In this document: piece after piece, positions 163-36,653 of the stretch | How the letters are laid out: each line of letters begins with the position of its first letter | Position numbering within the stretch: position 1 is the stretch's first letter | Assembly: GCA_051294905.1 (NCBI GenBank) | Contig: CM119372.1 | Location: 14,634,001-14,698,000, forward strand | Reading direction: 5' to 3' | Origin: Botryllus schlosseri | Taxonomy: Eukaryota | Length of the DNA: 64,000 nucleotides | Position numbers and translations under genes: made by a program | Notes under the pieces: generated by a model | Databases searched by the model: none | The model's input: only the letters and a program-made list of their open reading frames with translations | Told to the model about the DNA's origin: nothing

Positions 163-1287
163 TCAGCTTTCTGTTGATACCCGTTTTATTAAATTTGGCG
201 CTCGACAAGCCGGTCAAAAATGGCCGTAAAGTTGCCTTTGGTCAAATGGAAAGTATGACGTAACCCAAATGCAGTGAGTCGTTCAGTCTCGTTGTGTTCA
301 CACCAGAGTTGGATCAATTACAATAATTGAGTTTAATTACAATTACAATTACTCCCTTGCATGTTTCAATTGAATTACAATTAGCCTACTCAATGCTGAA
401 AATATACAATTACAATTACTGATAAACATGTAATTAAATTACAATTACAATTACTGTTAAACATGTAATTGATTCGGTAGAGAGGTGTTCTTTGACAACC
501 GTAGCGACGTAATTTGCAATTAACAATCTCAAGCTATTCATGTTTTATTCATGATAGTAGAATACCCTTTAATTAAAAAAAACTCGAACGTATTCGAACT
601 ATTCCTAATCATGAGTACTGACAGCCAATGGAATACTATAGGACAGCCAATGAGATGTAATCAAACGATTAGGCTACTCAGAGCTGAGTGAGGATAATGA
701 AACGTGGTAAGGCGTCAGCGATAAGGATGATACCGATAAGATGTGTAAAATTAAAATAAATGCAAAAGGAAAGAACCTCCTGATAACTACGAATTACAGC
801 ATTTTGGTTCGCATTTACATTTTCACTTGCTCGGAAACTGTTAGATTGCATTTGATGAACATTAGGGTGCGAAAATTTCTGGCCCCAGTAAATTTGGCCA
901 AGATTAGGGGTAAGATTGGGATAACTTCTCAACAAATGCGTGATCAAGTTTGATGAAGCCTTGGTTGGAAACTTGAATTTCATTTTGCAATTGTTGCAGC
1001 AAGCCTCGGTACTGGTCAGAAATTTAAAAAAGAAAACTCTGACCGTGGTGAAGGAAATGGTTTAGCGCAGGTTTCCGAAGAGTTTATTTGTTGTTCATTC
1101 ATTTTTGAAATATTAAGATTAATTTAGCCCACTATGATTCTCTAACTTTTTTAGACACGCCCCCCCCCCCTTTATGACAGTGCAATATTTCGTGCCCCAC
1201 TTATCGCCATATCACACAAGTAGTTAGTATGATCGGTCGTGATTCGCCATTGTTTCTTATGGCGGGGTCGCATGCTAACGCGAAAAC

Positions 1288-1470
1288 CGGGGGTGGCATG
1301 CTAACGTTTTCGTCTTATGGCGGGGGTGGCATGCTAACGTTTTCGTCTTATGGCGGGGGTGGCATGCTAACGTTTTCGTCTTATGGCGGGGGTGGCATGC
1401 TAACGTTTTCGTCTTATGGCGGGGGTGACATGCTAACGTTTTCGTCTTATGGGTGCGGTCGCATGATAAC
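1288..1470. repeat. Subterminal 33-bp tandem repeat (about 5 copies; mirrored at ~14335-14515)
   Basis: Unit GGGGGTGGCATGCTAACGTTTTCGTCTTATGGC read directly. Confidence 0.9.
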
Positions 1471-1749
1471 GCGAAACTCGTGGTGGCATGCTAATGTTTT
1501 TTGGTATACGTGCGGCGACATGCTAACGACGATAAATGTGTCTGTCATGTATTCTTACGGGATCTGTGGCGACTCGCCATGTGTTCTTGCGGTCGTGATT
1601 CGCACTTTCAGGTATCTCTCGCGTGGTGTTGAATATGCACGAGTCACCAACAATAACCGCGCGGACGGAAACGTGGTTTGTTGTGAGGATTTACGCAGTG
1701 CGTGCGACAGACGGCGATTCGAATATCAACAATAGTCGCGTTCGCAAAC

Positions 1750-2490
1750 TAACACTTCAAAAAGATGTGAAATATTTGTAAAATCCTACGATCGCTCACA
1801 AGATACCACTTCCGGCATATCAATCTATCACTCAATACACAACCGAAGTTGAATTGTAATTGAATGCGTAAATTTATCACCTCGACATCAAAATTCGAAA
1901 ACAACAACTTGATGCTTTATGTTCTCACTCTAATTTCATGATAAGTGTAATAAGTGCCGAATAACAGATACACCACCGGCGAGACTTGAATACCAACAAA
2001 TTGTCACTTATTTCTATTCTAGCCGTAATCCTTTGTGAAGTTACGCTTATTCAAATAGCTGTGAAATAGTTTGCAAAACCCCGCGATCGCTGACAAGATA
2101 ATGTCTCGGTCATAACCATCTTTCACGACTCGGTGTCATAACCATACCGATCACTCACGCGGTGAAATTTTCGTAATCAGTTTGACACAGAACTTGATTT
2201 CGCTGGTAAGATTTAACAAGTAACGAATAACAGACCGCCAGTGTCGGTAACTTGAATAGCGACAAATTGTCACTTATTTCCGCTCTAACCCTAATCCTCT
2301 GTGAAGTGAGCGCTTATTCAAAAGGGTGTGATATAATTTTAAAATCCGACGACCACTCACCGGATAATGCTTCAGACATAGCAATCCCTCATGCCCGCTC
2401 ACAAGGTAATATTTCGGTAATTAGTTTGTCCCAGAACCGTCGCAGACGGTGATTCGAAAACCAACAATTTGTCACTTGCCCGCGATCGCT
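1750..2490. repeat. Degenerate ~270-290 bp triplicated unit inside the Polinton arm (mirrored at ~13310-14050)
   Basis: Recurring ttcaaa..tgtga.ata....aaaa.cc..cga..ctcac..gata at ~1756, ~2050 and ~2317, and caaattgtcacttatttc at ~1997 and ~2263. Confidence 0.6.
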
Positions 2491-5400
2491 ATATGTTTCA
2501 CACCTCGCGAAAAGTGGCTGACTTTAGTTGCGTGATAAGATCCATGAAAATATTCAATCGATGTGTTAGTTTGTCAACTTGAAATGTAACTCACTACACA
2601 GATCAAGTTGAATCGTATTTGAATGTATTGATTCGACCCAACTCAAATCCTATCAACGCGATCTGTTGAATCGAACGTAACCTGAATATTACTGACGCCA
2701 ACATTCACCCTCATCGGATCATTCACACATTCCACGCCGCTGTTTTAACACTTATAGAATCAATACCAACTATCTCTGACCCGATAATATTCAATCATTT
2801 TGGTAATTTGCCAACTTTAAATCCATTCGCGGGATGTACTAAAGGTAAATCCAAATAATCCAGAATGAAATATTTGGACTTTGACATTGTGCGAATTGAA
2901 ATAGGTTTGACAAACATGACTACCAACTTTCACCCAGTCACATTTCAAGATTATACTTTGAAACAATCCTTGAAACTGACAACTCTATTCACGACTGAGT
3001 TTTCCGTTTATCAAATAGAGTTTCAGTAAATACTATCGCGATTTTTTAATGTGTTACTACACACAATAGAATCAATCAATGAAATAACACCTGTTGTAAA
3101 TATTTCTAACTTGACAACCACTTGTGCATACCGCGATCGACTTGAGACGCGATGAGTTAAATCGGAATATTTCAATCTATTTGTCGAAACCTTGAACAAA
3201 CTATCGGGTTATTTTTTGTTGCAATCGAGTGAACGGAAATAGTATTACGTCTCGACATCTCGCCATCTTACCATATTCAAAGAGTCAACCACGAAAACAT
3301 TGTCAAGTAAATCCGTTACCCGACCAACTCAAGCAGTTAGCCAAGCATACACGAGTCCATACAAACACTAAAACCTAAAATCCATAACAAGTTCGGATGT
3401 ATTCGTATCCCTACGCATCTTTTTTAATCAACTTGAAAAGTCGTTACTATTCTGTAAGATAGAGGGATTACAACGCGGTATATTCTGCAAGACAAACTAA
3501 TTACTACTCGGTATATTTTGTGAGACAAAAGTAATTACTCTTTGGTACAGGGGACTTGAGCTTAACATAATATGTTTGAGTATACGAGATTTGAAAGTCT
3601 GATCGACGTAGTTGCGACTTCATTTCTTACAATCGAACGCTGGTGTTACATTGAAAGTTATCATGCTGTAAACATCGATTTAACATATGTAATAGTTGAT
3701 CATGACTTGATTATTAAATTATTCGCGTTAATTAGACCCGGCGTTATGTTGAAAGTTATGACAGCAACAAACTTTTCAGTACCAATGTTATTAACATATT
3801 AAGCTGTAAAACTATGCGTGTCTGAAATGTTCTTGAATGGAAAATTATTCCACCTTGGTACATATCACCCTGCGTATCGCGGATATCAGAAAATATTTTA
3901 CAAATGTAATTGTCCCCACTAACCAAGACTAAAGATGAAACAACAATTTCCTTTGTTAAACAATAACCGGTACAATACTTTATCATCGTAATCAGCAGTG
4001 AGAATTGAAACACTTTCGCACATTATCTGGTGTCAAGATATCACACTAGGTGAATTGACATACCGCCGCTTGCATAATACCTAATCCGTTCACACCATTT
4101 CACATACTTTGATCATTACAAAAGTAAATTGGAATATGTTTGCTAGATGCATTCAATTCAGTTAGAAATGTCTGGTGCACAACAATCGTAATATCAAAAA
4201 AGTACTTGCTACACTGTTATTTGCTAAACGTGTTTTGCATTGTTGTTCATTTGTAGTATTGATTGTTCTTGAACCCTCAAATAATAATTCCCGACATGAA
4301 ACCAAGCCACTGAAAGTCGTTACCATCACGAAGAAACAATGTGTGCGATGTTTGTCAAATGTATCCTACCTGGCCACCAGAAAACAATTTTCACTCACTC
4401 GAAATGAAACCAATGTGATGGTCTCCATTCGATATTTTGTTTGTGTCAAATACTTTACAATGATCACATTTGAGTGGTTGAGGTTTACATCATCAAGCTG
4501 TTATTTGTAAATCAAGATTTCGGTAAACTTGTAAATGTATCGTTTAACTAACCAACATTTAGTGATTGTTGAACATACGACTTCGAAATACTGCGTTGAT
4601 CGTAATTTCCATCATCGTGATAATCGAAGTACATTTCTTTCGAATTCGTAACAACCGGCGTTTCTACGACATGACAAATTTTTGACAAGTTATGCTTAGA
4701 AGATTGGTTGCATATCGCGAAAAAAAAAATATACCACTCATATTGATACTGTTACTCCATTGATCGATATTTTCAAACGAGTAAAATTTATTACTTGAGT
4801 TTCTCCGCTTAATGTAAATGAAAACTCAGCCGTCTTTTAACATCACAAAGACATTGATAAAAAGTAGGCAATCAAACACAACACTTTGTACGACACTAAT
4901 TATTGTTCCACACATCTCATTTCATACTAAGTGTATACGAAAGATATTCACGACACATGAAAATATTCGCTCATGCTACGAACATACGCAATGATTGGTG
5001 GTGCTTTCAAACTGTTTCGATATCACAAGAACTTTATTGTCTGAATGGGTGTTCATGTATCTTAATAATCAAATAGTTCAACACAGAACTAGTACTAACA
5101 GAAACATCAGAGAGTTGTTTACACAAAAGTTTGTATGTGTACAGTATGCAAATACCATGTGTAAGTCCAGCACAATTGCAGTATCCATCCGGGTTTAGTC
5201 AACACAAATTTATTACAACAGAGCCACGTAAACTTTCGTGAAAGAAAAGCATACTCACTTCCAGAGGGTTATGTCAACACCATAGCAGTAAATCAGCTAC
5301 TCCAACAACAAAGTACATATGTTTCTAGCCACGATCCTTACATCTTTCACATAGATCAATCTACTTTGCTAACGAAAAGTGCTGAGTCATCACATGATCG

Positions 5401-6119
5401 CCCTCACAACAAAACAACTAGTAGATATTATCATTCAAAATATTCCTAACCCTTTACACACCAGTGACAAATCATACAACGAATATGTTTTGTGGGTCGA
5501 ATTGTTGTTCAGTGTCAAGTCTACCTGTTGAAACGTACATTAAAACAGCGCAATTCAAATAAAACCACGAATCTATTTTCATTTCCTCACAAACTGTCAC
5601 ATACAGAAAAATAAATTTTATTCCGCCAAAACATACTTGTAACCAATCGCTTTCATTAAACACACAACACCATAAAAGTATTTACTTTCTACAACATAGA
5701 CATTCCGATGTAGTCAAGAAATATTTTTATTAATCAAAATCATCGACTTCTGTTTACGGCGTTAGTGTGTGCATGTCATACATGTGGGATCCGTATTAAA
5801 ATGGACACGACACGACTGAATGTAAGGAGATAGAAGTCTATCGCATAGATTTACATGTGGTCTTCGCTACGGTTTCAAAAAACGAATCATCTCTTTTGCA
5901 TTGATCGAGACCGAGCAAGTTAGTTAATGGCCATGATTGTGTTTGTCATATGCGAATGATAGGGTTACTGTCAAATCTACATACAACAACCTTCTGGCAC
6001 TCATAATAGCAATTTCATTCTCGCCCTTCGTAATTGTAGACTCACAACAAGTATATTGTACAACTCGACAGCTACGTTTAACAACACCAACGACACTAAA
6101 CATACGATACCTACCCAAG

Positions 6120-6720
6120 TAAAATTACCATTTTCACCTGGAGGTCAGTCGTTACCTGAGTAAAAATACCATTATTCTTTGGAGATTTATCGTTTAATCA
6201 GAGTAACAAAACATTTTCACTTGGGGGTCTATCGTTTCCAAGAGTAACAAGCCCCCTTTCCTTTGGAAATCTATTTTTTCCCTGGGTAACAAACCTTTTT
6301 CACTTGGAAATATATTTTTTCTCTGGATAACAAACCTTTATCACTTGGAAATATATTTTTTTCCCTGAGCAACAAACCTTTTTCACTTGGGAATATATTT
6401 TTTCTCTGGATAACAAACCTTTTTCACTTGGAAATATATTTTTTCTCTGGGTAACAAACCTTTTTCACTTGGAAATATATTTTTTACCTGAGTACCAAAC
6501 CTTTTTCACTTGGAAATATATTTTTATCCTACAGCAACAAACCATTTTCACATGGAAAACTACTTTTACCTAGAGTAACTAATCATTTTCTTTTGGAAAT
6601 ATATTTTCTCCCTGGGTAACAAACCCGTTTCGTTTGGAAAACTATCATTTACCTGAGTACCAATACCGTTTGCACTTGGAAATCTATCTTTTCTCTGGGT
6701 AACAATACCATTTTCGTTTT
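6120..6720. repeat. ~40-bp AT-rich tandem array (about 15 degenerate copies; mirrored at ~9083-9683)
   Basis: Unit approximately ACAAACCTTTTTCACTTGGAAATATATTTTTTCTCTGGGTA with variable T-run length. Confidence 0.85.
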
Positions 6721-8350
6721 GAAAACTGACAACCACACCCGACAATTTGATATTTTTGTATATTGTTACAACGGGCAGTGACAAAATATACACCAACAAC
6801 GACTCCGATACATTTGTGCAATCGCATATTTACTTGTGTTGGTGCATCCCATCAAAATCATCGGTTACCCACATGCAATGTGCTCTTGTATATCGAAATG
6901 TATGTTTGGGAAATTGGACAATAGGTTTCGATAGGTCTGTGATGTCCGGGGTCGTGCTTTGGATTTTCCAGAGTCAAAATGTCTGAATAAAACACCTCCT
7001 CGACGATGGTTGGTATGTGGATAACGGTGTTCGGAAAACGGTTGGATTTATGTCACCCATCGCGATAACAATTCCAGGTCGACTTTTCCCCGCATGTTTA
7101 CTATATTGTGTCTTTATTGATCAATGTATGTCTCAACATTCAGTTTGAAATCGGAAACTCTGATAAAGTACGTAACCGGATCCGGATATCAACTCTGAAT
7201 CGATAAACCAATGAACAATATTCAAAGTAAACATGTTACACCCTGTGTTTCCACGAAAAAATACCATCCAGACATACGTCGCGCTTGTTTGCCCACACCA
7301 GTATACGCGTAAATGGAGGTGTGTGACATTGCATGCAATGTGTTGGTATACAAACATCGATCCACAGACATTATCATAGCCGGTAGTTTTGATGTAGATC
7401 GAATGTCACCCGATAACAATACCAATAAGCCACATTGCAATGACTCTGAGTCCGCGCTATTACATCGATATTTCGACACCGTTCACTGATTTACTCGATG
7501 GTGTTATCGTGTTGTTACATTGCAAGATAGTCATGACCCTATCTCCAGACAGATCACCCAGACCAATTGGATACATCGGTCAATATCCATCGTGTTGTCG
7601 ACACCGAAGTTTTCTGCTGAGACTTCAGCGTTTGACCAATGTGAACTATCGAAGTATGGGTGCTCGAAATGATTGCGATCAGTCTTTTAGTCACGATACA
7701 TGGATGTCGCTACTCCCACATAACGACTCCAGATAAATATAGCGAAAATCTCGGACTGATACTGTGATCCAATAAGGTGTGTTTCTGTGAAGACAGCAAT
7801 CGTACACCACAATAGAACACTACCTCGTGATTTCACACGCAATCATAAAACACATCATCATAAGGGTCTAGTTCGTCCGGTGACATTTCGAAACGGTCGT
7901 CGCCACAAGAGATCGGTAACATTTTGAAACGACATCGCCACAAGTCTATTGACATCGATTCTGTTGGTCATGTCAATCCGTTTCACAATCCACCGTTTTC
8001 AACTCCCCGCACCATAGTGTTACGACACAGACAAGAAGCGTCGGTGGAAATAATAAAACACGGAAAGCACACTTTGGTGTTATTTGATATGGATTTTACA
8101 CCAGACGAACCTCATATTCGAGCAATGTATTTGAATGGCGATTGTATTATTGATGTTCAGGGAAAAGAAATTTATCGATTTATCGGTTTCGTACATATCC
8201 AACAAAAACTAGGGTATGTGATTGTGCGTGGTTCGCATATTCGACTGTGAACGCTCTATTGGTATATGCTGTATAGCTCACTTTCACCGTCGTGCGAATA
8301 ACCCATGTTACGGCTCCATGTTTGTGTGTCTGTATGTCATGCTTCAGATT

Positions 8351-11300
8351 GACTCAGAGTCATTGCAATGTGGCTTATTGGTATTGTTATCGGGTGACAT
8401 TCGATCTACATCAAAACTACCGGCTATGATAATGTCTGTGGATCGATGTTTGTATACCAACACATTGCATGCAATGTCACACACCTCCATTTACGCGTAT
8501 ACTGGTGTGGGCAAACAAGCGCGACGTATGTCTGGATGGTATTTTTTCGTGGAAACACAGGGTGTAACATGTTTACTTTGAATATTGTTCATTGGTTTAT
8601 CGATTCAGAGTTGATATCCGGATCCGGTTACGTACTTTATCAGAGTTTCCGATTTCAAACTGAATGTTGAGACATACATTGATCAATAAAGACACAATAT
8701 AGTAAACATGCGGGGAAAAGTCGACCTGGAATTGTTATCGCGATGGGTGACATAAATCCAACCGTTTTCCGAACCCCGTTATCCACATACCAACCATCGT
8801 CGAGGAGGTGTTTTATTCAGACATTTTGACTCTGGAAAATCCAAAGCACGACCCCGGACATCACAGACCTATCGAAACCTATTGTCCAATTTCCCAAACA
8901 TACATTTCGATATACAAGAGCACATTGCATGTGGGTAACCGATGATTTTGATAGGATGCACCAACACAAGTAAATATGCGATTGCACAAATGTATCGGAG
9001 TCGTTGTTGGTGTATATTTTGTCACTGCCCGTTGTAACAATATACAAAAATATCAAATTGTCGGGTGTGGTTGTCAGTTTTCAAAACGAAAATGGTATTG
9101 TTACCCAGAGAAAAGATAGATTTCCAAGTGCAAACGGTATTGGTACTCAGGTAAATGATAGTTTTCCAAACGAAACGGGTTTGTTACCCAGGGAGAAAAT
9201 ATATTTCCAAAAGAAAATGATTAGTTACTCTAGGTAAAAGTAGTTTTCCATGTGAAAATGGTTTGTTGCTGTAGGATAAAAATATATTTCCAAGTGAAAA
9301 AGGTTTGGTACTCAGGTAAAAAATATATTTCCAAGTGAAAAAGGTTTGTTACCCAGAGAAAAAATATATTTCCAAGTGAAAAAGGTTTGTTATCCAGAGA
9401 AAAAATATATTCCCAAGTGAAAAAGGTTTGTTGCTCAGGGAAAAAAATATATTTCCAAGTGATAAAGGTTTGTTATCCAGAGAAAAAATATATTTCCAAG
9501 TGAAAAAGGTTTGTTACCCAGGGAAAAAATAGATTTCCAAAGGAAAGGGGGCTTGTTACTCTTGGAAACGATAGACCCCCAAGTGAAAATGTTTTGTTAC
9601 TCTGATTAAACGATAAATCTCCAAAGAATAATGGTATTTTTACTCAGGTAACGACTGACCTCCAGGTGAAAATGGTAATTTTACTGGGGTAGGTATCGTA
9701 TGTTTAGTGTCGTTGGTGTTGTTAAACGTAGCTGTCGAGTTGTACAATATACTTGTTGTGAGTCTACAATTACGAAGGGCGAGAATGAAATTGCTATTAT
9801 GAGTGCCAGAAGGTTGTTGTATGTAGATTTGACAGTAACCCTATCATTCGCATATGACAAACACAATCATGGCCATTAACTAACTTGCTCGGTCTCGATC
9901 AATGCAAAAGAGATGATTCGTTTTTTGAAACCGTAGCGAAGACCACATGTAAATCTATGCGATAGACTTCTATCTCCTTACATTCAGTCGTGTCGTGTCC
10001 ATTTTAATACGGATCCCACATGTATGACATGCACACACTAACGCCGTAAACAGAAGTCGATGATTTTGATTAATAAAAATATTTCTTGACTACATCGGAA
10101 TGTCTATGTTGTAGAAAGTAAATACTTTTATGGTGTTGTGTGTTTAATGAAAGCGATTGGTTACAAGTATGTTTTGGCGGAATAAAATTTATTTTTCTGT
10201 ATGTGACAGTTTGTGAGGAAATGAAAATAGATTCGTGGTTTTATTTGAATTGCGCTGTTTTAATGTACGTTTCAACAGGTAGACTTGACACTGAACAACA
10301 ATTCGACCCACAAAACATATTCGTTGTATGATTTGTCACTGGTGTGTAAAGGGTTAGGAATATTTTGAATGATAATATCTACTAGTTGTTTTGTTGTGAG
10401 GGCGATCATGTGATGACTCAGCACTTTTCGTTAGCAAAGTAGATTGATCTATGTGAAAGATGTAAGGATCGTGGCTAGAAACATATGTACTTTGTTGTTG
10501 GAGTAGCTGATTTACTGCTATGGTGTTGACATAACCCTCTGGAAGTGAGTATGCTTTTCTTTCACGAAAGTTTACGTGGCTCTGTTGTAATAAATTTGTG
10601 TTGACTAAACCCGGATGGATACTGCAATTGTGCTGGACTTACACATGGTATTTGCATACTGTACACATACAAACTTTTGTGTAAACAACTCTCTGATGTT
10701 TCTGTTAGTACTAGTTCTGTGTTGAACTATTTGATTATTAAGATACATGAACACCCATTCAGACAATAAAGTTCTTGTGATATCGAAACAGTTTGAAAGC
10801 ACCACCAATCATTGCGTATGTTCGTAGCATGAGCGAATATTTTCATGTGTCGTGAATATCTTTCGTATACACTTAGTATGAAATGAGATGTGTGGAACAA
10901 TAATTAGTGTCGTACAAAGTGTTGTGTTTGATTGCCTACTTTTTATCAATGTCTTTGTGATGTTAAAAGACGGCTGAGTTTTCATTTACATTAAGCGGAG
11001 AAACTCAAGTAATAAATTTTACTCGTTTGAAAATATCGATCAATGGAGTAACAGTATCAATATGAGTGGTATATTTTTTTTTTCGCGATATGCAACCAAT
11101 CTTCTAAGCATAACTTGTCAAAAATTTGTCATGTCGTAGAAACGCCGGTTGTTACGAATTCGAAAGAAATGTACTTCGATTATCACGATGATGGAAATTA
11201 CGATCAACGCAGTATTTCGAAGTCGTATGTTCAACAATCACTAAATGTTGGTTAGTTAAACGATACATTTACAAGTTTACCGAAATCTTGATTTACAAAT

Positions 11301-14300
11301 AACAGCTTGATGATGTAAACCTCAACCACTCAAATGTGATCATTGTAAAGTATTTGACACAAACAAAATATCGAATGGAGACCATCACATTGGTTTCATT
11401 TCGAGTGAGTGAAAATTGTTTTCTGGTGGCCAGGTAGGATACATTTGACAAACATCGCACACATTGTTTCTTCGTGATGGTAACGACTTTCAGTGGCTTG
11501 GTTTCATGTCGGGAATTATTATTTGAGGGTTCAAGAACAATCAATACTACAAATGAACAACAATGCAAAACACGTTTAGCAAATAACAGTGTAGCAAGTA
11601 CTTTTTTGATATTACGATTGTTGTGCACCAGACATTTCTAACTGAATTGAATGCATCTAGCAAACATATTCCAATTTACTTTTGTAATGATCAAAGTATG
11701 TGAAATGGTGTGAACGGATTAGGTATTATGCAAGCGGCGGTATGTCAATTCACCTAGTGTGATATCTTGACACCAGATAATGTGCGAAAGTGTTTCAATT
11801 CTCACTGCTGATTACGATGATAAAGTATTGTACCGGTTATTGTTTAACAAAGGAAATTGTTGTTTCATCTTTAGTCTTGGTTAGTGGGGACAATTACATT
11901 TGTAAAATATTTTCTGATATCCGCGATACGCAGGGTGATATGTACCAAGGTGGAATAATTTTCCATTCAAGAACATTTCAGACACGCATAGTTTTACAGC
12001 TTAATATGTTAATAACATTGGTACTGAAAAGTTTGTTGCTGTCATAACTTTCAACATAACGCCGGGTCTAATTAACGCGAATAATTTAATAATCAAGTCA
12101 TGATCAACTATTACATATGTTAAATCGATGTTTACAGCATGATAACTTTCAATGTAACACCAGCGTTCGATTGTAAGAAATGAAGTCGCAACTACGTCGA
12201 TCAGACTTTCAAATCTCGTATACTCAAACATATTATGTTAAGCTCAAGTCCCCTGTACCAAAGAGTAATTACTTTTGTCTCACAAAATATACCGAGTAGT
12301 AATTAGTTTGTCTTGCAGAATATACCGCGTTGTAATCCCTCTATCTTACAGAATAGTAACGACTTTTCAAGTTGATTAAAAAAGATGCGTAGGGATACGA
12401 ATACATCCGAACTTGTTATGGATTTTAGGTTTTAGTGTTTGTATGGACTCGTGTATGCTTGGCTAACTGCTTGAGTTGGTCGGGTAACGGATTTACTTGA
12501 CAATGTTTTCGTGGTTGACTCTTTGAATATGGTAAGATGGCGAGATGTCGAGACGTAATACTATTTCCGTTCACTCGATTGCAACAAAAAATAACCCGAT
12601 AGTTTGTTCAAGGTTTCGACAAATAGATTGAAATATTCCGATTTAACTCATCGCGTCTCAAGTCGATCGCGGTATGCACAAGTGGTTGTCAAGTTAGAAA
12701 TATTTACAACAGGTGTTATTTCATTGATTGATTCTATTGTGTGTAGTAACACATTAAAAAATCGCGATAGTATTTACTGAAACTCTATTTGATAAACGGA
12801 AAACTCAGTCGTGAATAGAGTTGTCAGTTTCAAGGATTGTTTCAAAGTATAATCTTGAAATGTGACTGGGTGAAAGTTGGTAGTCATGTTTGTCAAACCT
12901 ATTTCAATTCGCACAATGTCAAAGTCCAAATATTTCATTCTGGATTATTTGGATTTACCTTTAGTACATCCCGCGAATGGATTTAAAGTTGGCAAATTAC
13001 CAAAATGATTGAATATTATCGGGTCAGAGATAGTTGGTATTGATTCTATAAGTGTTAAAACAGCGGCGTGGAATGTGTGAATGATCCGATGAGGGTGAAT
13101 GTTGGCGTCAGTAATATTCAGGTTACGTTCGATTCAACAGATCGCGTTGATAGGATTTGAGTTGGGTCGAATCAATACATTCAAATACGATTCAACTTGA
13201 TCTGTGTAGTGAGTTACATTTCAAGTTGACAAACTAACACATCGATTGAATATTTTCATGGATCTTATCACGCAACTAAAGTCAGCCACTTTTCGCGAGG
13301 TGTGAAACATATAGCGATCGCGGGCAAGTGACAAATTGTTGGTTTTCGAATCACCGTCTGCGACGGTTCTGGGACAAACTAATTACCGAAATATTACCTT
13401 GTGAGCGGGCATGAGGGATTGCTATGTCTGAAGCATTATCCGGTGAGTGGTCGTCGGATTTTAAAATTATATCACACCCTTTTGAATAAGCGCTCACTTC
13501 ACAGAGGATTAGGGTTAGAGCGGAAATAAGTGACAATTTGTCGCTATTCAAGTTACCGACACTGGCGGTCTGTTATTCGTTACTTGTTAAATCTTACCAG
13601 CGAAATCAAGTTCTGTGTCAAACTGATTACGAAAATTTCACCGCGTGAGTGATCGGTATGGTTATGACACCGAGTCGTGAAAGATGGTTATGACCGAGAC
13701 ATTATCTTGTCAGCGATCGCGGGGTTTTGCAAACTATTTCACAGCTATTTGAATAAGCGTTAACTTCACAAAGGATTACGGCTAGAATAGAAATAAGTGA
13801 CAATTTGTTGGTATTCAAGTCTCGCCGGTGGTGTATCTGTTATTCGGCACTTATTACACTTATCATGAAATTAGAGTGAGAACATAAAGCATCAAGTTGT
13901 TGTTTTCGAATTTTGATGTCGAGGTGATAAATTTACGCATTCAATTACAATTCAACTTCGGTTGTGTATTGAGTGATAGATTGATATGCCGGAAGTGGTA
14001 TCTTGTGAGCGATCGTAGGATTTTACAAATATTTCACATCTTTTTGAAGTGTTAGTTTGCGAACGCGACTATTGTTGATATTCGAATCGCCGTCTGTCGC
14101 ACGCACTGCGTAAATCCTCACAACAAACCACGTTTCCGTCCGCGCGGTTATTGTTGGTGACTCGTGCATATTCAACACCACGCGAGAGATACCTGAAAGT
14201 GCGAATCACGACCGCAAGAACACATGGCGAGTCGCCACAGATCCCGTAAGAATACATGACAGACACATTTATCGTCGTTAGCATGTCGCCGCACGTATAC

Positions 14301-14584
14301 CAAAAAACATTAGCATGCCACCACGAGTTTCGCGTTATCATGCGACCGCACCCATAAGACGAAAACGTTAGCATGTCACCCCCGCCATAAGACGAAAACG
14401 TTAGCATGCCACCCCCGCCATAAGACGAAAACGTTAGCATGCCACCCCCGCCATAAGACGAAAACGTTAGCATGCCACCCCGCCATAAGACGAAAACGTT
14501 AGCATGCCACCCCCGGTTTTCGCGTTAGCATGCGACCCCGCCATAAGAAACAATGGCGAATCACGACCGATCATACTAACTACT
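8351..14584 (-). repeat. Right arm of 6.2-kb inverted repeat
   Basis: Reverse complement of 1219-7452, with only a few differences seen by eye. Confidence 0.97.
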
Positions 14585-15671
14585 CACACAATGAAACCAG
14601 AATGCCATTAATCCTTACAGATAGTTTGATGATATGGAAGGTTATGACTATTGATGAGAGAATTCTCCAATATGAAATTCGGACTATACACGGAGCAATA
14701 GCTGTGAAATAGAGGTGAATCGCGCCAAGCGCGGAAAAAATTTCAGTTTACCGGAGCTTCGCGCCCCCTTCAGATACTTTCACGCCGCCCAAGGGATTGC
14801 GTTATGACGACTGTGGTGGAGTGCTGTAATCGACCTTGCTGGCGTGTTGTTTCACTGATTTTCCCTAATTGGTTTAATTTTAGTTGATTTCGTGAGCACA
14901 GTGAGATAGTGCTGCATACTAGCATATGTAATAGGCTAATACAATGCACATTTATCAAAGTACCGACTAGCTGCTAGGCATTTTAGCATTGGTGGCATAC
15001 ATGCATGTACGACACAGCCCCAAAAAATTAATATGGAGACTGTGAGTGCTGTGCGTCATCATAGTTATGCAGAACCTGGAAGGATTGTTAAAAGGGGATT
15101 TGGCAATTTTCTGGCATCCTTTGCGTCACCTAATTTATTAAAAGAGAAGGGTTGATTACGATGATTGTGTGAGCATACTAAATAATTATATATAGTATGG
15201 TATTGATATAGCGATTGTGCCTTCATAATATAAAATCGGAACCGAAAATCATCATTGTACTGGTTGATAAGCCACAGTGTCCCATATGGTGTGGACCAGA
15301 GCTGGATCAATTGTAATTTGTAATTTAGCTGAATGTCATTATTACATTTTTTCATGTAATTGTAATTGAAGCATTTCTATTTTGCGTAATTGTAATTTGA
15401 TGAAAATTTTGCTCAATTACAATTTCAATTACATTGTTATGGAAACCTGACAATCACAACATAAAATAATCAACCAATCAATCATTTATTCGTCACACCA
15501 GTGAAAATCCGGTACGGACCAGGATGACGACGAGGGCCGCAAGGCCTTAGTACACGGTCGCCACCTGTAATAATTAGCCTATTTACATCGGTGTTCCATG
15601 CGTGCCGCGTTATAAGTAGATAATTCGGCCATGCTAAACTGTTTCCCATACTTCAGTAGCAACAGAAAACT

Positions 15672-15810
15672 TTGGGACGCAACAATGCTGTCTGGCGAAA
15701 CGAGAGAGTAACGAGAGAGTAACTCTCTCGATTCGCCAGACAGCATTGTTGCGTCCCAATGCCAATCTCTCGTTTCACCAGACAGCATTGTTGCGTCTCA
15801 ATGCCAATCT
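15672..15810. repeat. Short hairpin with an extra direct copy of one arm (42-bp unit)
   Basis: ttgggacgcaacaatgctgtctggcgaa..gagagagt pairs with actctctc..ttcgccagacagcattgttgcgtcccaa (to 15759); the arm is repeated again at ~15766-15801. Confidence 0.75.
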
Positions 15811-18201
15811 CCAAAACAATGAAAAATTCGAGGCTGATTGTGGGGGTTCCAGGGCCGCGAGCGGAATAAAATTTATATTTTCGTAATCAGTGCAGAGTCA
15901 GCTTTCGATTGATACAAGTTTTACCAAATTTAATGCTCGGCAAGCCGGTCAAAAATGACCGTCAAATTGCCTGTAGCCAAATGGAAATTGTGACGTGATA
16001 CAATTTCACTCAGGCGTGAGATTTGCTTGTGTCGACACCTTATAGGACACTATGCTTTTATCCTAATCCAATCCAAATCCGACAAAATTTCGCAAATCCT
16101 GTTTTTACAAATCCTAATCCACATCCATGCTCATTGCTCATCTCTGCTAGGGTTACCATATTTTTGTATAGATAACCGTAGGCTAGTTATCTATAATTTT
16201 TGTGACCCAAATTCCGGACGCTTTTTAGCGTGCACTAGTGGATTTCAAAATGAGTTATGAGCACATTGTCTGTCAATATGACGTCACACCAGCAAAGCTT
16301 TGCTTATCGACCTTAGGTGGTTACGAATCAGAGAACCAGGATCAGGAGTGTGTGGCTGTGTGTTGTGTAATCGGGACCGAAACCACATTTTTTCAGCCCC
16401 GTCCCGCCCAAATAAACAATGATTTTGGGCCCACTATAGGATAATCGATGCGACTTCTAGGGGGCTTGCTATATGCATCTGGTCGTTTTTTTGGAATGAC
16501 TTCTGTCAATAACATTGTTTCTTCCATATTACTATATAGTTTGATCCTCTCTCCGCCACACAATCAGAGTTTGCGGTAGAGCTGGTAGAGGATAATGACT
16601 TCGAAAATACAGGGAGCGTAATTGCACATCGTTAAGTCATGTTCATGTCACACCGATAATATTGTTGATCAGCCTTATGCCGGTGGACACCACGGAGCTT
16701 TATAACCACCCCACATCCAATCGTTTCCAACCTGTCATGGTCGCGACTCCATTTCTAATTTGTACGGTGGCCCTTATCAAAATTAGACGAGCTGATTACT
16801 AAAAGAAGTTAGCACCTTTGCCCAGACTTACTCACGGGGTATTTTGAAATCTGACTACGTTCAGCATCTTCGCGAAACCCAGAATAAAGGCAAACGACCC
16901 CCACGTTTGGAAGCACTATCTCTGAAAAAAGCATTTAAACGACCTTAACCATCTCTAGGAATATACCGTTCTCCTATAATTGTTATTACAATTTAGTTTA
17001 TTTCAGTAAACGAAGGTTATTTATATTTTATTGCAGTTTTTCCTAGGGTGGTAGTCCCCATATTAAAACATTGAATGTGATAGTAAATGACGCGCAGAGC
17101 GACGAAAAATATCATGTAGCATATATATTCCCCAAAATATGATGTTATTATGTTGATTTACGAAAAAATTATGAGCCTACGTCAAGCCTTCAAAATTGCG
17201 GACATTTAGGCATATTTTAAAAATTCTTCCCTGACGCAAGTTTGAGCAGTGCAATTCTGGACGTGTGGTATGGTTTATATAGCTCAGTGATTGCAACCCT
17301 AGTATAGCCTATCCTCCAAGCCTGGTTTCTTTTGTCTGAATCTATGGTCGCTTCTTATTCAGTCAACCGTAACATGCATTGCCTGTGTGTTCTGTGTTGT
17401 GTAAAGCGTTGTTTTTACAGTGATCATCATCATCATCATCATTGGTTTATTAGCAATTGTATCAGTTCAATACACCACAAAAATGCGATACAATGAATAG
17501 ACAGGAAGATGTCGAAGCGACTTGGAGTAGTCTATGGAATCAGACACCCACCTTGGCCTAGGCGATGTAAATAGGAGGCATGCACACTGAATGAAAGTAA
17601 AGAAGACACTGAGCTATATGTAAACAAAACAAGCAAGTAGCAAGGTTGTATTTGAGGTGCGGAACCCAGGTCAGTAAAACCATGCATCCCTTGGCTTCAA
17701 ACTCTTGGAAACTGCTATAAATTCTTTGCGTGAGGCCTTGCAATAGTCTCAGTTACATTAGTCATCAGGCTATAAAAAACAGTCACCCGTAAAGTGTATT
17801 AATATTAGGATTATAATGTATCCGTTATTCGTTGAGTAATAATCAATCGTCCGCGTTAGTATTCTCATCTACACAGAACGCAGTGTGATGAATATTAATA
17901 GCATGAATGTTCAGTTGAAATCAACAGACGAACCTTCGTCTGGACCGTTGTGTAGTGTCAGCCTGTATGGAATCGGTGTGCTATGCTCACACTATATTCT
18001 ATTTTTTAATTATTTTTTATTGAATTACTTTAACTTGGAAAATCATCGCTGCTCACCTGATATATCAGGCAAAAAGGCCAGCGATTCCAATCAGGCCGCG
18101 GTGCCGGTATATCAATATACGTCGAGTTATAATAATTGTATTTTAATGAAAAATATTTTGAAACCAAATAAACACCTTTTATTATAGATTTCGAGTCCGT
18201 C

Positions 18202-19026
18202 ATGGAATATACTCAAGCCTGTCCATCTGGATATAGTAAAATTTTTGTGAAATACGACTCCTCGTGTAAATACAGTCATGAGCTGCTGTTTAAACCGGAT
18301 GAAACAAGAAAAGAAAATTCGCTGAAGCCCGCAGGAAGAACGTTACTAGTCGCCAACGTTCCACCATATTGCAGCAAAACCAATCTTGAAAGGATCTTTT
18401 CAAAATTTGGAAAGGTTGATTCCGTACATCTAGTTCACGCCCTGGGCGGTGAATCCGAGTATCACGCGAAGCCTCCTGTTGTCACCGACTTGACTGACAA
18501 TGACAGGAAATACTTTCCAAAGAAAGAAGAATACGGCTGTCCTTTTGCCTTTATAGTCTACCAAGACAAATCATCTATTACTAAAGCTATGGGCCAAACG
18601 ATCAAAGTAGCTCCAACTCTTTTATCGCGAAATGAAGCGATCGGTATGAAGAAATGGGCACAAGAGTATTACAGCCAGTTCCCAAATCAAGATGAACTGA
18701 AAACTAACATCGACGCTTATATGGCGAGATACGATCGTGCGATACTACAGAGAGAGGAGCAAGAAAAACTTGCGGGCGAGGAGGACAATGACGGGTGGAC
18801 AAAGGTGACAAAGGGCGGAAAGACTCCATTTATCGCAAGAACCGAGGCTAACCAGTTGAAAGCCAAAGAAAAGAGGAGGAATAGAAGCAGGGATTTGCTG
18901 AACTCGTATTCCTACCAGATAAGGGAGTCGAAGCGACAAAAAATTGCAGAGCTTCGAGAAAAATTCCAGGAAGACAAGCAAAGGGTGCAGGAAATGATAG
19001 AGGCGAGAAAATTCAAGCCATTTTAA
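18202..19026 (+). CDS. RRP7A: Ribosomal RNA-processing protein 7 homolog A (intronless, 274 aa)
   Basis: N-terminal RRM-like region (RTLLVANVPPYCSK..L..IFSKFGKV), FAFIVY, G(M)KKW, and the C-terminal RRP7 motif EEDNDGWTKV...LLNSYSYQIRESKRQKIAELREKFQEDKQRVQEMIEARKFKPF. Confidence 0.93.
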   Translation: MEYTQACPSGYSKIFVKYDSSCKYSHELLFKPDETRKENSLKPAGRTLLVANVPPYCSKTNLERIFSKFGKVDSVHLVHALGGESEYHAKPPVVTDLTDNDRKYFPKKEEYGCPFAFIVYQDKSSITKAMGQTIKVAPTLLSRNEAIGMKKWAQEYYSQFPNQDELKTNIDAYMARYDRAILQREEQEKLAGEEDNDGWTKVTKGGKTPFIARTEANQLKAKEKRRNRSRDLLNSYSYQIRESKRQKIAELREKFQEDKQRVQEMIEARKFKPF

Positions 19027-19658
19027 AAAACGCTATCAAAGCGAAACTGGAAAGGCAAAGAATCGTTTGCAGGGAAGCGATGCCGCAAACACCGATAGGA
19101 TTTTAGTGAGGGAAAGAATTTGCTGACAAGAGCTGTCAGAAACAATAAGACACGCATGAGGCCTCGTCATGAAATATGGGATATGCGAGTTGAGATTACT
19201 GTACTGTTGTGCCATTGATTGCATGGTGACAATTTGGTTTGGGATCTTTAAGCCATACGGTAGCCGACTGTGCTCGCAGCCACCGCTAGAGCACAATATC
19301 AGATTTATAATGACCATATGCGTCATCATCATCCTTGGAAAAAGACTGCTGATGGGCACAAGATGTGATTTCACGTCCCGAATCCGGTGTAATATGCTTG
19401 TATTTAACACATTTCGTGTGGCAGCAAAACGACTGAAATACATTTGAAAACTGGCACACAATCATAGAAAATAGTAATAAACAAATGAATGAATGTCAAC
19501 GTGTCATGAATGGAAACGTTACTACAGTATCAAGGAAGAACGTGCGCATTTATTCGACTCGAAGCAATGAGTGCGTGACCAACAGCTTAAGTAACACAAT
19601 AATATAAACAAACTTGGCATATTTTTCAACGTATTGAAGCGAATGATGCAGGATGAGA

Positions 19659-20014
19659 CTAACTCTCGGTCTCGTATTTCTCAACGAGATCAGGTGGCAA
19701 GTCTCCCGTCCTCAGAAGATTGCGGCATTTATCCTTGAGCATCCCAGGAGTCCGCGATCCCAAATCCTCGTAGCCGTCGTCAAGCATGCTCGACCAATTA
19801 CCGCGCGGGTGCTTACGAAGTAGGTCTATCAAAGCTGCTGTTTCAGTTGCGGTCCATTTATGCCTCACACGATCTCTCCGTCGCAATCTATCCAGCTCCT
19901 TTCGGCGCTTCTCTCTTTTGTCTTTAGCTTGTTTGCTGCCACTGTACTTATGTGTGGATCTTGATTTCAGTGTTTTGAATGCGTTGATTGTGCTTGGTCG
20001 TGTTGGAGATCCAC
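19659..20014 (-). CDS. Terminal exon with telobox Myb domain (Myb4)
   Basis: Acceptor taacag, then GGSPTRP...RHKWTATETAALIDLLRKHPRGNWSSMLDDGYEDLGSRTPGMLKDKCRNL...TAG; resembles TRF helix 3 RTxxMLKD(R/K)WR. Confidence 0.85.
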
Positions 20015-23000
20015 CTGTTATAGCACATTAACAAGCAAAATAATTAGGCCATTGCGATACCACTCGAGTACCAGACTTCGATTTCCCGCATCATGGTGTT
20101 CGGATTCAAAAGTTCCTCTCCGACCATGAGTGACCGGCATGCTTTTCTTAATGATCATACCATGATATAATTTTGTTTTAAAAAAAGGCCCACTAATTTG
20201 AAAAGTTATGTTAATCTGCATTTGATGTCCTAATTATAGATGCTTGAACCCTCAACAGGATGGTTAATTCTGACCAAGGAAATGGATAAATCTTGTCGGT
20301 TTCACCCGTCCTCGTGCTATCGTTTATATATCACTGTAAGCAGCTTGCAACCGGATCAATGTCAATGGTTACGGTTGTTCATGAATTAAGGCTCTTATTG
20401 CAAACCATATGTAGCCTAATACAGATTTGGCTCCACTGCCCGAAAACCGTAACTCTTGGCGTGACATATGGTTGAGCCATAACTGCTACATATTCTCCAT
20501 GTCAATTAGCCACACACTATTTTTAAGAATTTCTATTGAAGTTGTCAAAGCGCATGGAGAGCGAACATTTGTGAATATGGAATAGTGTGTAGCATCAAGT
20601 TATTGACAGTAGAAAGAACCGGTTCAATTAGTCACATCAAGGTGAAGTAACGCTGTATACCAGGGAGATTGCATAATTGGTAAATCTACTGCAGTTGACA
20701 CAAAGAGAACCCAGTTCGAGTCTTGGGAGTGATTTGAATAGTTGTGTTTACCTGGGATACGCTTCCGCTATGTTACTGTTCTTAATGTGTCGCTGTATAG
20801 ATCTCTTTTGCCTTAGGTTCCCGGCCTCCGGTATAATAGCTTAGCTCAGAGGTTCTCAGCAAGGTTTTCTGTGACACTCACCACTGCTCGGAAATCGGAA
20901 AACTTTTACCATGATTGACAGTAGTCGAAATTGTATATTGATGTATTCAGACATTGACGAGTTGAATGTCATGCCACAAGAATAGAATAAAATTTGGTTC
21001 CCAGGGTGTTACCTATGCTACTTCCATGCTTCTCTCATCAAGCTTCGGGTCCCAAATGTGACACCAACAGCGAATAAGTTTGACAACCTCCGGGTCTGAT
21101 TATAGTCCACACGGAAAAATATGAAGGATATGTAACTTGTGGCTAGCTCAAAAACGATTTACTTCCAACTATGTCCATTTCATATATATATAACTTGCGA
21201 TAGCATGCGGGTCAGGAGGCACAGAATGCCAGTTCGTCCCTTCACCCTCAATTGCATTCTGGGCATATCTGGCGTCTAAGTAGATCACACTTTACCTTGC
21301 AACTGACCGGAGCTCTTTTCATTCTCGCTTTCGGTAGAAGTGCTCTGCCCTTCCAGTGTGCTCGGCGAACGACTTCGGAGATGAAATTTCGGTTTGCTCT
21401 ACCGCAAAACAAACGCAGTGGTGTAATTACGAAAGCAGTACAGATTGCAATCAGTATCTACCGTTTGAGTAGCGGCATCCATGCTTCTGTTGAGTATTGG
21501 AGAGTTCGAAGGATCTGTTTCTGATATGAACGCAACGCAGTTTTACCACCGAAATAAAGCTGACTGAATACAATTACCTGAATTGGTGATAATGTGCAGG
21601 CTGTTCTCCTCGTCGGTAGAACGCAGGTCGCTGTTCAACGGATCCTGAACAAATAAAATTTTTAAGTACGCCAACGGGTATTAACTAAACATATTTCCCA
21701 ACCTCTATATCCGAAGAGTTTGATATGACCCTCCTACGTTTGATCATCACAGGACCCTGAAAGAACCAAAATTTCAAATACGACAATTCTTAATAACGAA
21801 ACATATTTACAATTTGTATTTACCTCAGAATCAGAAGAACATGTGTCAGTGGGATCAGCATCAGGATTTCTGAAATAAAATGTGGAAAGGCTACATCTTG
21901 CGATGTTACAATTGTGCGGCGGTAAAAGCAGAATAAGAATGTATTTTAGCAGGACTATGCAAGCGCTTGGATGCGCGTCACCTTGTTAACCACGGGGATT
22001 CCACGCTGGAATAAATCATGAATGGGTGACGCAATTATTGGTCTCACATCCATGTAAGATTCAGTGTCAAAGTAACATATTCAAGGACTGTAAACGTAAC
22101 ACACTACTACACTAAAACTTTCACCGCATTCTTGGGCAGAGCAAGGTGACACTCTGTAGTCGGGGTTTCGGTAAATTTTCTCTTCATAAGTCAGAATCAC
22201 GGAAAGCACATACTGGCTGACTCTGACTCCATCCACCTCAAAATTGAACCAAATGTTCCTTAAATAGTGTCGGTGAAGTTACAGAAGTTGTCAAGTTTTT
22301 CATGTAGGTGGGCCTTCAATCATAATTCCTTTCTACAAGCTCAAATTATTTCAACTAAAAAATGGTTGAGCCACCTGATACTAACAACTAAAAATGCATT
22401 AAACGTGTAATCTTCAGAGTAGATTTACGAGAATGTTGGATTCAAGTCGGAGTTTGTGAAGAAACTATTGGGAGTCAGAGTTGGTATATTGAAAATGTCT
22501 AAAGTTAACTATAAAGTAGGGTTGCCATACGTCCGGAATTTCCCGGGCATGTACGGAATTTCACTGTTCAAACTGCGTATGGGAGGAAATTCAAAAATAT
22601 GACTCATGTCCAGAGTTTTGAAGGCTTGAAATAGGATCGATTTTTTTTCGTAAATCGACATAACCGATATTATTTTTTGGGCAGATTTATGCCACATGCC
22701 ACTTATACTTTTTCTTCGCGCTGCCCGCGATTTAGTGACAAATCAATTGATTTTAATATGTGCACTGCCGACCTCGCAATACATGCATAAAAATAACCAT
22801 CATTTACTGATACAAGTCTAATTGTAATCGCAAAATCAAATCAAATCAAAATTTCATAGTGATATATGGAAGAATCAATATTATAAACAGATTTCATTCA
22901 CAAAATTCAATGACCAGATAGATGCATATAGAAACCAGATGTTGCCCCTCAGAAGTTACATCGATTACCATATGGTGGGCTCAAGATCAGTATTTATGAG

Positions 23001-26000
23001 GATGGGAGTGGGCTGAAAATGTTGTTTCGGTCCTGGTTACAACACACGACCACATAACTGCACCGACGTAACATTATAGCGGCTCCTGATGAGGATTGTG
23101 TCCACCTCTGGTCGATAGGCAAAGCATTGCTAGTGCGACGTCATATTGTGTCTTAACTCATTTTAAAAACCACTAGTGGGCGCTAAAGGGTATCCGGAAT
23201 TTGCCTCACCAAAATATGGTAACCCTACTGTAAAGTGAACCAAAGCACTGCTGTCACCGAATGTGTTGGCGACAGCTTCACGGGTTCGAAATTGCCCGGC
23301 CGACTTGAAATTAATACCTAAATAATCTTCAAATTCATCAACGTAAAATCCAACCAACTTTTTTCGGCAGTTGAGAACCTTGTTTTTCAACTGCTCTGCG
23401 ATCTCCTCAATGTTTTCGGCCAGCTTTTTGTCGATGCATTCAATCGACCCGTCGACAACTTTAACCGCATTTTTGCTGCACAATTTACTCCATCTGAATA
23501 ACATGATACTGAGTATGCTCACTCGCAAGGTTCCAACAAGCACACCCGGCCCAACCCACCTTTCTTCCATATCCGCCACGGTGATGTGGCTCCGGAAATC
23601 CATGTATTCTTGTATCGCGTGCCATCGCTGTCCCAGATGCATGGCTCCGCACACCAGATATCTCGATCGGCTCCGATAACTCGATAACGGCCGATAACTC
23701 GGCCGATAACTCGATCGGCAGGAACTTTACATCGCTTGCATCAGAAGTCAAGCTGCCCTCGGAAAGTGCAGGGCTGAAAATACGACTCAAGTTGATTCGA
23801 GACTTTGAGATAACGAAGGAGGCTGGCCGAGTAGGTATTTGAAAGTAACTGCATAAATATATACTCGGCAATGAGTAGAAGTGGCGAGACAAATGATACT
23901 TACTTCAAGTAGAAGTATAAAATCAAGGTTCAAAAGTACTCAAGTTGAGTATTTTCTATAAGTAGATTGGTTCGAGGGGTCCTGTGTAGTGTCTACGGCA
24001 GGATTGTCAAACTCAAGTTGCGTCACGGGCCGGATTCAAAATTTCAAACCGCTCGCGGGTCAGACCAATAAAATTATTCCAAAATGTTACCTCAGAATCC
24101 ATGCCCGTGTTGTCAACTTGAACACTCAATTATCCAACCTATGGATCAGTGCTGTATTCTGTCAATACCCTTATTTGCGAGCAATGTCATTGGTAAAACG
24201 TCTACGATTGGTCAGTTGAATACAGTTATATAAATTACTAAAACAATGACAATGACTGTAACGACGATAGACGTTGACATCGTGATCTGGCAATTGTTCT
24301 GTGAATGCGTTGTGAGGAATACACAAGATTTAACTGCATAAACGCAGGCGTTCAAATTTGGTTCATTATTATTGTTATATCGGGATTTGTATTTTCAGGA
24401 ATTCGAGGAACCGTCAAGTCAGAAGTGAAAACGAAGTGCGACCGCAGATATTTTAAATATATTTTTGTGTAACAATTATGTTCTCCATGCAGTCTGCATA
24501 ATACCGGTTTTGAACTGGCGTTTTCACTTCTGTGAATAACTATGTTTTGGTTCATTTTCCCGCAAAACTCCGAGCTCAGTGTGCACATTTTTCTTTAAGG
24601 AATCGGGTGTCAATGGCAGCGACTTGTTGCTGATGGTATAGTAATGTGACCTATTAACACACTGAACATTTCTGTCTTGAGGGATTTAAATAAGTGTTTC
24701 GTACTAAAAATCTCAACATTAGTCTGAAATGTGCAGGATAATACAGCCATTTTCAGAATCACTTCACAGGCCGTATGTTGATCGGAGTGGCTACTTTTGA
24801 AATTGCAAGGTGAGCCTTTGTGAATAATGCAAAAAACTAATGATGCTGCAGATAGCTGGAATCTTTGGGGATATAGTCAGGTACCGGTACCACGATAAAG
24901 GGGATGTTTTAAACGTGTCTTATGACAATTTCACTCAAAAAAATAAAGCAAATTTATCCCAAATCTACTTTTCAAGATCCAAATTGAGTAGTATGGTGAG
25001 TGGGGGTAATCCAACACATAACTACTTAAGTGAAAGTAGGTAAACCATACTCGGGTACTTAGAAAATGTAGTGCTTTGTTACTGACCACCTCTGCTCAGT
25101 TCCGCAGACTCTGGATAACAATCAGCCGTGATATTATTATTGAAAGGCGACGTTGCCTTGCAGGTCTCATACTATCCGCAACGAGTAATTTACACTTTAA
25201 TAACATGAACAGTAGGGTTGTCCAAAATTTGGAAAATCTTACAAATCCTCCGTTGTAATGTCTTATTCTATAGATTATTGATAAAAAACGACAATGGGCC
25301 TAAAAGAAACTCACAGGAAGGCCGTTAAGATTTCGTGCAAAGCGTTTGAAAGTAGCTGCCTAAGAATGGGCGTGCCACCGGCCATAGAACGGCGTGAAGA
25401 CTAGTAATCACGGCTCTTGATTTGCTAATCGGCTATGCTTCAATGGCCACGAGAGCAGCAGCAAGTTGATTAGGTGATCAAGAAGTCTGCTACCGGCGGC
25501 GATTGTGAAAGCGCATTGCATGTAGGTTGGCAGATAATGGTTTAGGATTGATTCAGGGTATGTTGAGGTACGAAATACATGAAGAACAAACAACAGCTGC
25601 TTCACAAAAACGTCCAAAGCATGACCGCTTTATTGTGAAGGAAACCGCCGCAGCCTATATGCCTTGTTTTCAACGAGGGAAAGCATAGGCGCTTATGCAA
25701 GTGGCAATGGATTCCTAGTTTTAGAAAGGATATATCATTATTGAATACAAATATAAAGCTTAACAACGACACTATTAGTTGTGTGATCTTATTGGGCTCA
25801 GGTGGTAGTACATAGTTGAAGTTTTGAATGCTGTAAGAATCGGCGGGTTATGCTTCGCACTTATCAGATGCTTACATCAAATTGTATTCACTTGCAAGTG
25901 TTGCTAAAGTCCTTAATGATGACACAGGAAAGCGGTGTAATAGTAAGCACATACTATGCTGGATATGATATGTCAATGATATGGCAAAGTCCTTAATAAA

Positions 26001-36583: not shown

Positions 36584-36653
36584 ATTAACCTATCCCTGAA
36601 TTTGAGAAGAAATTTTCAGGTTTGAGGAAGCGTGCAAAAAGTCAGATCAAAGT

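Follow-up and report, generated by a model that had tools for sequence, protein, structure and literature searches.

A palindromic 13.4-kb element with Maverick/Polinton-type ends in Botryllus schlosseri, best read as a copy of an abundant helper-dependent foldback family

Introduction

Maverick/Polinton elements are virus-like transposons, non-autonomous forms of which were reportedly described by Kapitonov and Jurka in 2006. The subject of this study is a 13,366-bp element with Maverick-type ends, 93.3% of which consists of two inverted arms, located in a 64,000-nucleotide stretch of Botryllus schlosseri (NCBI GenBank assembly GCA_051294905.1, contig CM119372.1, positions 14,634,001 to 14,698,000; hereafter the window, in whose numbering all positions are given). 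We read it as a palindromic, Polinton-ended member of an abundant and diverged family; an autonomous Maverick likely supplies the polymerase and integrase for its copying and insertion, and its arms probably become alike within the mobile cycle. We put the probability of this reading at roughly 0.55. An established helper-dependent foldback family with Polinton ends, that is, a non-autonomous foldback design on a virus-like transposon, is our best reading of the locus.

Mavericks are 12.7-24.6 kb or 13-25 kb long (PMC8097293; PMC10748475; PMC11414722), with terminal inverted repeats (TIRs) of 46-1,447 bp in a vertebrate survey (PMC8097293), 100-1,500 bp (PMC10748475) or 744 bp (PMC11414722), and in vertebrates they occur in a median of 8 copies (PMC8097293; PMC10748475; PMC11414722). 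Like autonomous Mavericks, the present element has (AGT)2//(ACT)2 ends, a 6-bp target site duplication (TSD) and, at 13.4 kb, a length within their range; unlike them, it is abundant, has no detected core genes, and carries arms of 6,234 bp, which lie outside the TIR range of about 50-1,500 bp and are four times as long as the longest TIR of the vertebrate survey. Published Polinton TIRs reach about 1.5-2 kb. Indeed, Polinton derivatives of butterflies have TIRs of about 2 kb with hexon and adenain genes, and those without polB are apparently still mobile (bioRxiv 10.1101/2025.02.07.637071); the element resembles them in TIRs longer than usual and in apparent mobility after polB loss, whereas its arms are three times longer, gene-free as far as detected, and account for 93% of the element.

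Foldback elements such as Tetris and Galileo are likewise non-autonomous, with long TIRs that hold internal tandem arrays around a short middle domain, but their TSDs are 8-10 bp, their TIRs reach 1,735 bp, and Galileo has a THAP-domain transposase (PMC4079207). In contrast, the present element has Polinton-type ends, a 6-bp TSD, outside the 8-10-bp range, and arms 99.9% alike. Copy-back and snap-back defective viral genomes also carry one end twice, inverted around a loop, with little or no coding capacity and dependence on a helper; they are, however, mainly transient products of negative-strand RNA viruses (PMC13506859), whereas the element is chromosomal, bears a TSD and belongs to an inherited, diverged family. 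Polintons that are palindromic over their whole length were not described in the literature retrieved by our search, the scope of which did not extend to Repbase, Dfam, subscription papers or supplements, where TIR tables could hold longer cases.

Results and Discussion

Architecture and termini

Self-BLAST of the window returned one dominant inverted match (1219-7452 against 14584-8351, 99.92% identity), and global alignment of the arms counted five differences, namely single-base indels at 1322 and near 2042, and substitutions at 6117, 6850 and 7028. The features of the element are the following.

1213-1218, plus strand: left TSD copy, CACACA (sequence, arm alignment)
1219-7452, plus strand: left arm, 6,234 bp, starting with the Maverick-type motif AGTAGT (self-BLAST, alignment; motif as in PMC8097293)
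1288-1471, plus strand: subterminal 33-bp tandem array, 5.6 copies, 95% matches (mirror copy at 14333-14515)
1708-2625, plus strand: degenerate internal duplications of the arm (1939-2120 against 2204-2386 at 75%, plus shorter matches)
6203-6715, plus strand: 41-bp tandem array, about 11 copies, 81% matches (mirror copy at 9088-9600)
7442-7452, unstranded: 11-bp interrupted palindrome GACTC-T-GAGTC, at the inner end of each arm (read from the sequence)
7453-8350, unstranded: unique spacer, 898 bp, the loop if one strand folds back (alignment; depth step at the left border in three DNA runs)
7970-8250, plus strand: candidate small loop gene, about 93 codons, frame-broken near 7995-8001 (four open relatives, 62-89% identity)
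8351-14584, minus strand: right arm, 6,234 bp, reverse complement of the left, ending ACTACT (self-BLAST, alignment)
14585-14590, plus strand: right TSD copy, CACACA (sequence, arm alignment)

The element begins with AGTAGTTAGT... and ends with ...ACTAACTACT, and its end motif, (AGT)2//(ACT)2, is one of the two forms, together with (AG)3//(CT)3, by which Maverick/Polinton ends are recognised. The CACACA direct repeat adjoins both ends, and its 6 bp fall within the 5-8 bp of Maverick TSDs; a chance match of 6-bp flanks has a probability of about 3e-4, somewhat higher for a CA repeat. Outside the ends, the flanks match as a mirror at only 24.5% identity over 200 bp, the mirror stopping exactly at the ends. 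Since the mirror of a fold-back read should run on into the flank, a simple artefact of that type is unlikely. The Polinton-type termini (AGTAGT/ACTACT, the motif given in PMC8097293), the intact 6-bp TSD, and the 6,234-bp arms around an 898-bp spacer, with about 93% of the element self-complementary, had all been described in a first-pass annotation made from the letters alone, and were borne out by the sequence, self-BLAST and alignment.

At the right junction, the inner-arm palindrome lengthens to 13 bp (8350-8362) and contains TGACTCA, which we take to be an AP-1-like site; the palindrome could be a recombination or template-switch point. DNA folding of 7400-8400, run with no shuffle control, gave only the expected stem. 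The CpG observed/expected ratio was 1.5 in the outer arm (1219-2600) and 1.35 in the spacer (7453-8350), against 0.77-0.9 in the flanks; CpG loss driven by methylation is thus not apparent in arm or spacer.

Foldback elements are built of long TIRs that contain internal tandem repeats and enclose a short middle domain, a design that the element shares, and in this context a giant foldback moved by a cut-and-paste transposase unrelated to Polintons, with Polinton-like ends by chance, has to be weighed. The non-coding middle and internal arrays recall Tetris (PMC4079207), and other palindromic non-autonomous elements are present in the window. However, Tetris differs in TSD and TIR length (8-10 bp and up to 1,735 bp; PMC4079207), the TSDs of Ginger1 are CCGG/CCGT (PMC2836005), and (AGT)2//(ACT)2 ends with a 6-bp TSD are the commonest vertebrate Maverick signature (PMC8097293), so that we hold a chance origin of the ends to be decidedly improbable.

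Coding capacity

The longest non-repeat stop-to-stop frame of the element spans 128 aa (7864-8250), and longer frames exist only where they traverse the 33-bp array. An ATG-led frame of 168 aa runs through this array in the left arm (1229-1735), with no Pfam match above the cut-off; the difference at 1322 shifts the frame in the right arm. Pfam searches of 29 open reading frames (ORFs) of the element gave no match at the cut-off, six weak matches (E 0.003-0.08) being dismissed. Moreover, no match at E<=1 was obtained in any of 12 frames read with X at stops, covering 1480-6200 and 6720-8350, in a read-through scan that lacked a positive control and that decayed genes could escape. By ORF lengths and Pfam frames, none of pPolB, integrase, ATPase, protease and capsid was detected, and very decayed remnants could remain; neither an SSB nor an IAP gene was detected in the arm in the 12 read-through frames, and Rfam had no match in the window. 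The ORFs are too short for intact Polinton genes, which are thereby excluded.

In this copy, a frame break near 7995-8001 interrupts an ORF of about 93 codons (7970-8250), and the 128-aa frame comprises its downstream part. The ATG at 7970 is followed by ten residues identical to the start of an open relative, P0001, and four open relatives in all (P0001, 89% identity; P0005, 88%; P0002, 67%; P0003, 62%; over 81-83 columns) share the same start in a gap-free alignment; they were found because they are ORFs. Compared with a neutral expectation, the substitutions showed no significant excess of conservative changes (P 0.08-0.56 over the pairs and settings tried), three of nine listed variant sites were synonymous (25-30% expected), and the probability of staying stop-free by chance was about 0.15-0.3 per diverged pair. 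The predicted fold of the loop protein is all-beta with seven strands, at low confidence (pLDDT 49.6); it had no Foldseek match at E<=0.001 in the viral or PDB libraries, a best VIA Z of 4.2 and Atlas hits of at most 0.89, and a resemblance to a WD40 blade (P0004, E 7.5e-4; hhalign probability 34%) is a weak lead only. Against viral contigs, none of 60 pattern matches was confirmed. Of 186 stretches in metagenome contigs, three passed, with 44% over 38 aa, and the one inspected (L001) resembles a beta-propeller blade and was taken as chance.

We consider 7970-8250 a candidate small loop gene. The first-pass statement that no non-repeat ORF exceeds about 120 aa stands in substance, while its description of the element as gene-less may be too strong, since the spacer holds a frame-broken ORF with open relatives.

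A diverged family in sequencing runs

Part of the element was contained in 20 of the 24 listed runs, across nine studies; the best run, X1, which may be the assembly's own sample, holds 0.86 of the sampled words of the element. Contigs aligning on 6730-8350 at the 85% identity cut-off numbered 37,169 in X1, 2,224 in X4 and 211 in X15, DNA runs from three studies, and they occupied all identity bands (99% and above, 95-99%, 90-95% and under 90%). Such thousands of diverged contigs in three DNA runs are what many related copies would give, and they point to the element being one copy of an abundant, diverged family, known as contigs, not as separate insertion sites.

Spacer and inner arm were covered in 30 of 30 bins in X1, X4 and X15. 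Mean summed contig depth, which is no copy number, over 13 arm bins relative to 16 spacer bins was 4.5 in X1, 2.2 in X4 and 3.2 in X15 (medians 4.7, 1.4 and 4.0), and the fall in depth sits at 7445-7500 in all three. The border between arm and spacer thus looks family-wide, and the palindrome looks like an established architecture, not an accident of this copy.

Further observations touch the family. A joint from 7487 to 7436 in X1, at depth 184, could reflect a subfamily whose loop is about 50 bp long or, alternatively, a tandem duplication of 52 bp spanning the arm/spacer border, and 304 X1 contigs overran the ends of 6730-8350. X15 and X17, labelled organism B, hold 0.43-0.44 of the element words, like many organism A runs, and may be mixed samples or come from a close relative. 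No RNA run was among the listed holders of element words (24 runs listed). In the RNA run X23, 197 of 22.2 million reads matched, eight of them at >=99%, and 40% continued into unlike sequence; with so few close reads, the signal is too weak to assign expression to this copy. Most of the X23 reads fall at 6785-7004 and share one strand; the majority are less than 95% alike, many continue into unlike sequence, and they are possibly transcripts of diverged family members.

The same data bear on the copy-back origin proposed in the first-pass annotation, taken here as a recent event in which one end of a parent Maverick was copied back on itself by template switching and the product then integrated once in trans. 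In its favour, copy-back and snap-back defective genomes have the same arm-spacer-arm layout (PMC13506859), the short palindrome at the inner junction (7442-7452) is a possible switch point, minority letters shared by both arms would be expected from one copying event, and recurrent events at one hot spot could also yield a family-wide border. Nevertheless, this origin was not supported: where 7.1 kb derive from the end of a gene-dense Maverick of 13-25 kb, core genes or their remnants should be present, and neither arm nor spacer yielded any in 12 of 12 read-through frames; the depth falls at one and the same border in runs of three studies, which together with the thousands of diverged contigs speaks for an old, established family; and no strong loose end or alternative continuation at 7452 was found among the 24 loose-end rows listed of 643. 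For these reasons a recent copy-back is weakened, and we judge it improbable; an ancient copy-back may nonetheless have given rise to the family.

The palindrome might also have been made or trimmed in assembly, from a fold-back read or a collapsed repeat. High-copy families are prone to misassembly, none of the reads seen spans the element, and even the best run contains no more than 0.86 of the sampled words. On the other side, the mirror ends at the end motifs and the unrelated flanks carry the direct 6-bp repeat, the arms differ at five places, and all 30 bins of spacer and inner arm are covered in three DNA runs, all of which makes an assembly artefact very improbable, and the least likely of the explanations considered here.

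Similarity between the arms

In the 40 of 136 variant rows that were listed, the two arms carry the same letter at all 17 variable sites of the inner arm. At 12 of these sites the alternative letter takes over half of the depth in X1, X4 and X15, and at five it takes over 90%. This copy has drifted from the family while its arms stayed 99.9% alike. The shared minority letters, taken together with the family-wide border, therefore indicate repeated equalisation of the arms and not one old duplication.

Equalisation could have acted after insertion, within the same non-autonomous Polinton-ended family, through chromosomal arm-to-arm gene conversion or, in part, assembly polishing. Arms 0.9 kb apart are good substrates for gene conversion, and the arms of sex-chromosome palindromes are kept alike in this way; one copy cannot time the equalisation, the 17 shared letters fit either route, and two of the five arm differences are single-base indels, a class typical of sequencing errors. 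Conversely, TSD and ends are intact, as in a young insertion, which would have left conversion little time to act on a dozen or more sites within 400 bp, and three arm substitutions persist, so that neither process has been complete. We consider equalisation after insertion rather unlikely, and prefer equalisation in the mobile cycle.

Several points weigh against the preferred reading of a Polinton-ended family whose arms are made alike in mobilisation. Besides the limits of the depth figures and of the read-through scan, and the possible identity of X1 with the assembly's own sample, the apparent link to Polintons consists of the 6-bp motif and the TSD length only. Two arms per spacer throughout the family would give a depth ratio of 2, which X1 and X15 exceed; this suggests other spacer types, spacer-less copies, or spacers below the 85% cut. 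No listed contig spans the 1.6-kb stretch 6730-8350, nor was any arm-spacer-arm read or contig seen, and the strand-change joint from 8350 to 7452 was not among the joints listed, which were skips only, the aligned stretch having ended at 8350. A second copy is absent from the 64-kb window, and a single copy can be compatible with equalisation in the mobile cycle, with chromosomal conversion or, partly, with polishing.

Proposed mechanism

A model in which single-stranded Polintons fold into a racket and are copied by their own polymerase before integration has been drawn from sequence (PMC4196379), and the Maverick end motif is thought to serve protein-primed initiation (PMC8097293). For the present family, a helper Maverick would supply polymerase and integrase in trans. 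A released single strand may fold into a racket with a stem of 6.2 kb and a loop of 0.9 kb, and protein-primed synthesis would start at the Polinton origin that the end of the stem offers. Before insertion, repair would remove mismatches within the stem, or one arm would serve as template for the other; the retroviral-like integrase of the helper would then insert the double-stranded product, leaving a 6-bp duplication. Each new copy would thus begin with near-identical arms, and copies would drift apart from one another. The five arm differences would then be later mutations or errors; if they are post-insertion mutations, the insertion is probably young.

Integration in trans by a helper, which the first-pass annotation had also assumed, is likely, because the element has a Maverick end motif and a 6-bp TSD, yet no detectable integrase or polymerase; the helper itself is a presumed one. 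Going further, the family may tentatively be viewed as a satellite of an endogenous DNA virus: a stable hairpin replicon of helper size (13.4 kb), copied by the protein-primed polymerase of a Maverick through its 6-kb fold-back stem, with arms regenerated or corrected in each cycle, perhaps packaged in the helper capsid, with a small loop gene of its own, and outnumbering its helper. We regard this wider picture as possible but doubtful. The terminal 18-mer had no match among viral contigs.

Neighbouring genes and other elements of the window

The single-frame genes flanking the element encode RRP7, CDIN1 (TPD domain), prefoldin and RIC8, and the CDIN1 protein has its best named relatives in three tunicates, Styela clava, Clavelina lepadiformis and Phallusia mammillata. 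RIC8, the prefoldin subunit and CDIN1 lie as three closely packed single-frame genes on the minus strand (35612-39000), a cluster that would appear to resemble a tunicate operon.

A 3.9-kb element at 39939-43823 has inverted ends starting GGCCCTGTGG, subterminal arrays rich in GATACAGCT and an 8-bp TSD, CCGCTGAC; the GG ends and 8-bp TSD of this element are reminiscent of Merlin transposons. A related fragment lies at 107-167. Furthermore, palindromic or inverted-repeat elements occur at 25210-26871 (arms of about 800 bp at 87%) and 47604-48037 (430 bp, with 16-bp arrays), an 88-bp palindrome occurs at 15672-15759, and diverged inverted matches surround the RRP7 gene at 16196-23215.

Conclusion

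Polinton surveys keyed on pPolB and integrase (PMC8097293; PMC10748475; PMC11414722) miss elements of this kind. A nearly all-stem family whose arms change together makes the racket model of Polinton replication testable, and hairpin or linear protein-capped forms would become directly searchable. If arms are equalised at mobilisation, arm-to-arm divergence would date insertions as pairs of long terminal repeats do. Long inverted repeats are usually unstable, and if our reading is true, many 13-kb palindromes can persist in an animal genome. In brief, if the dependence on a helper is true, virus-like transposons have abundant parasites of their own, and, if the satellite view also holds, the family would attest in vivo to the racket intermediate long proposed for Polinton replication.

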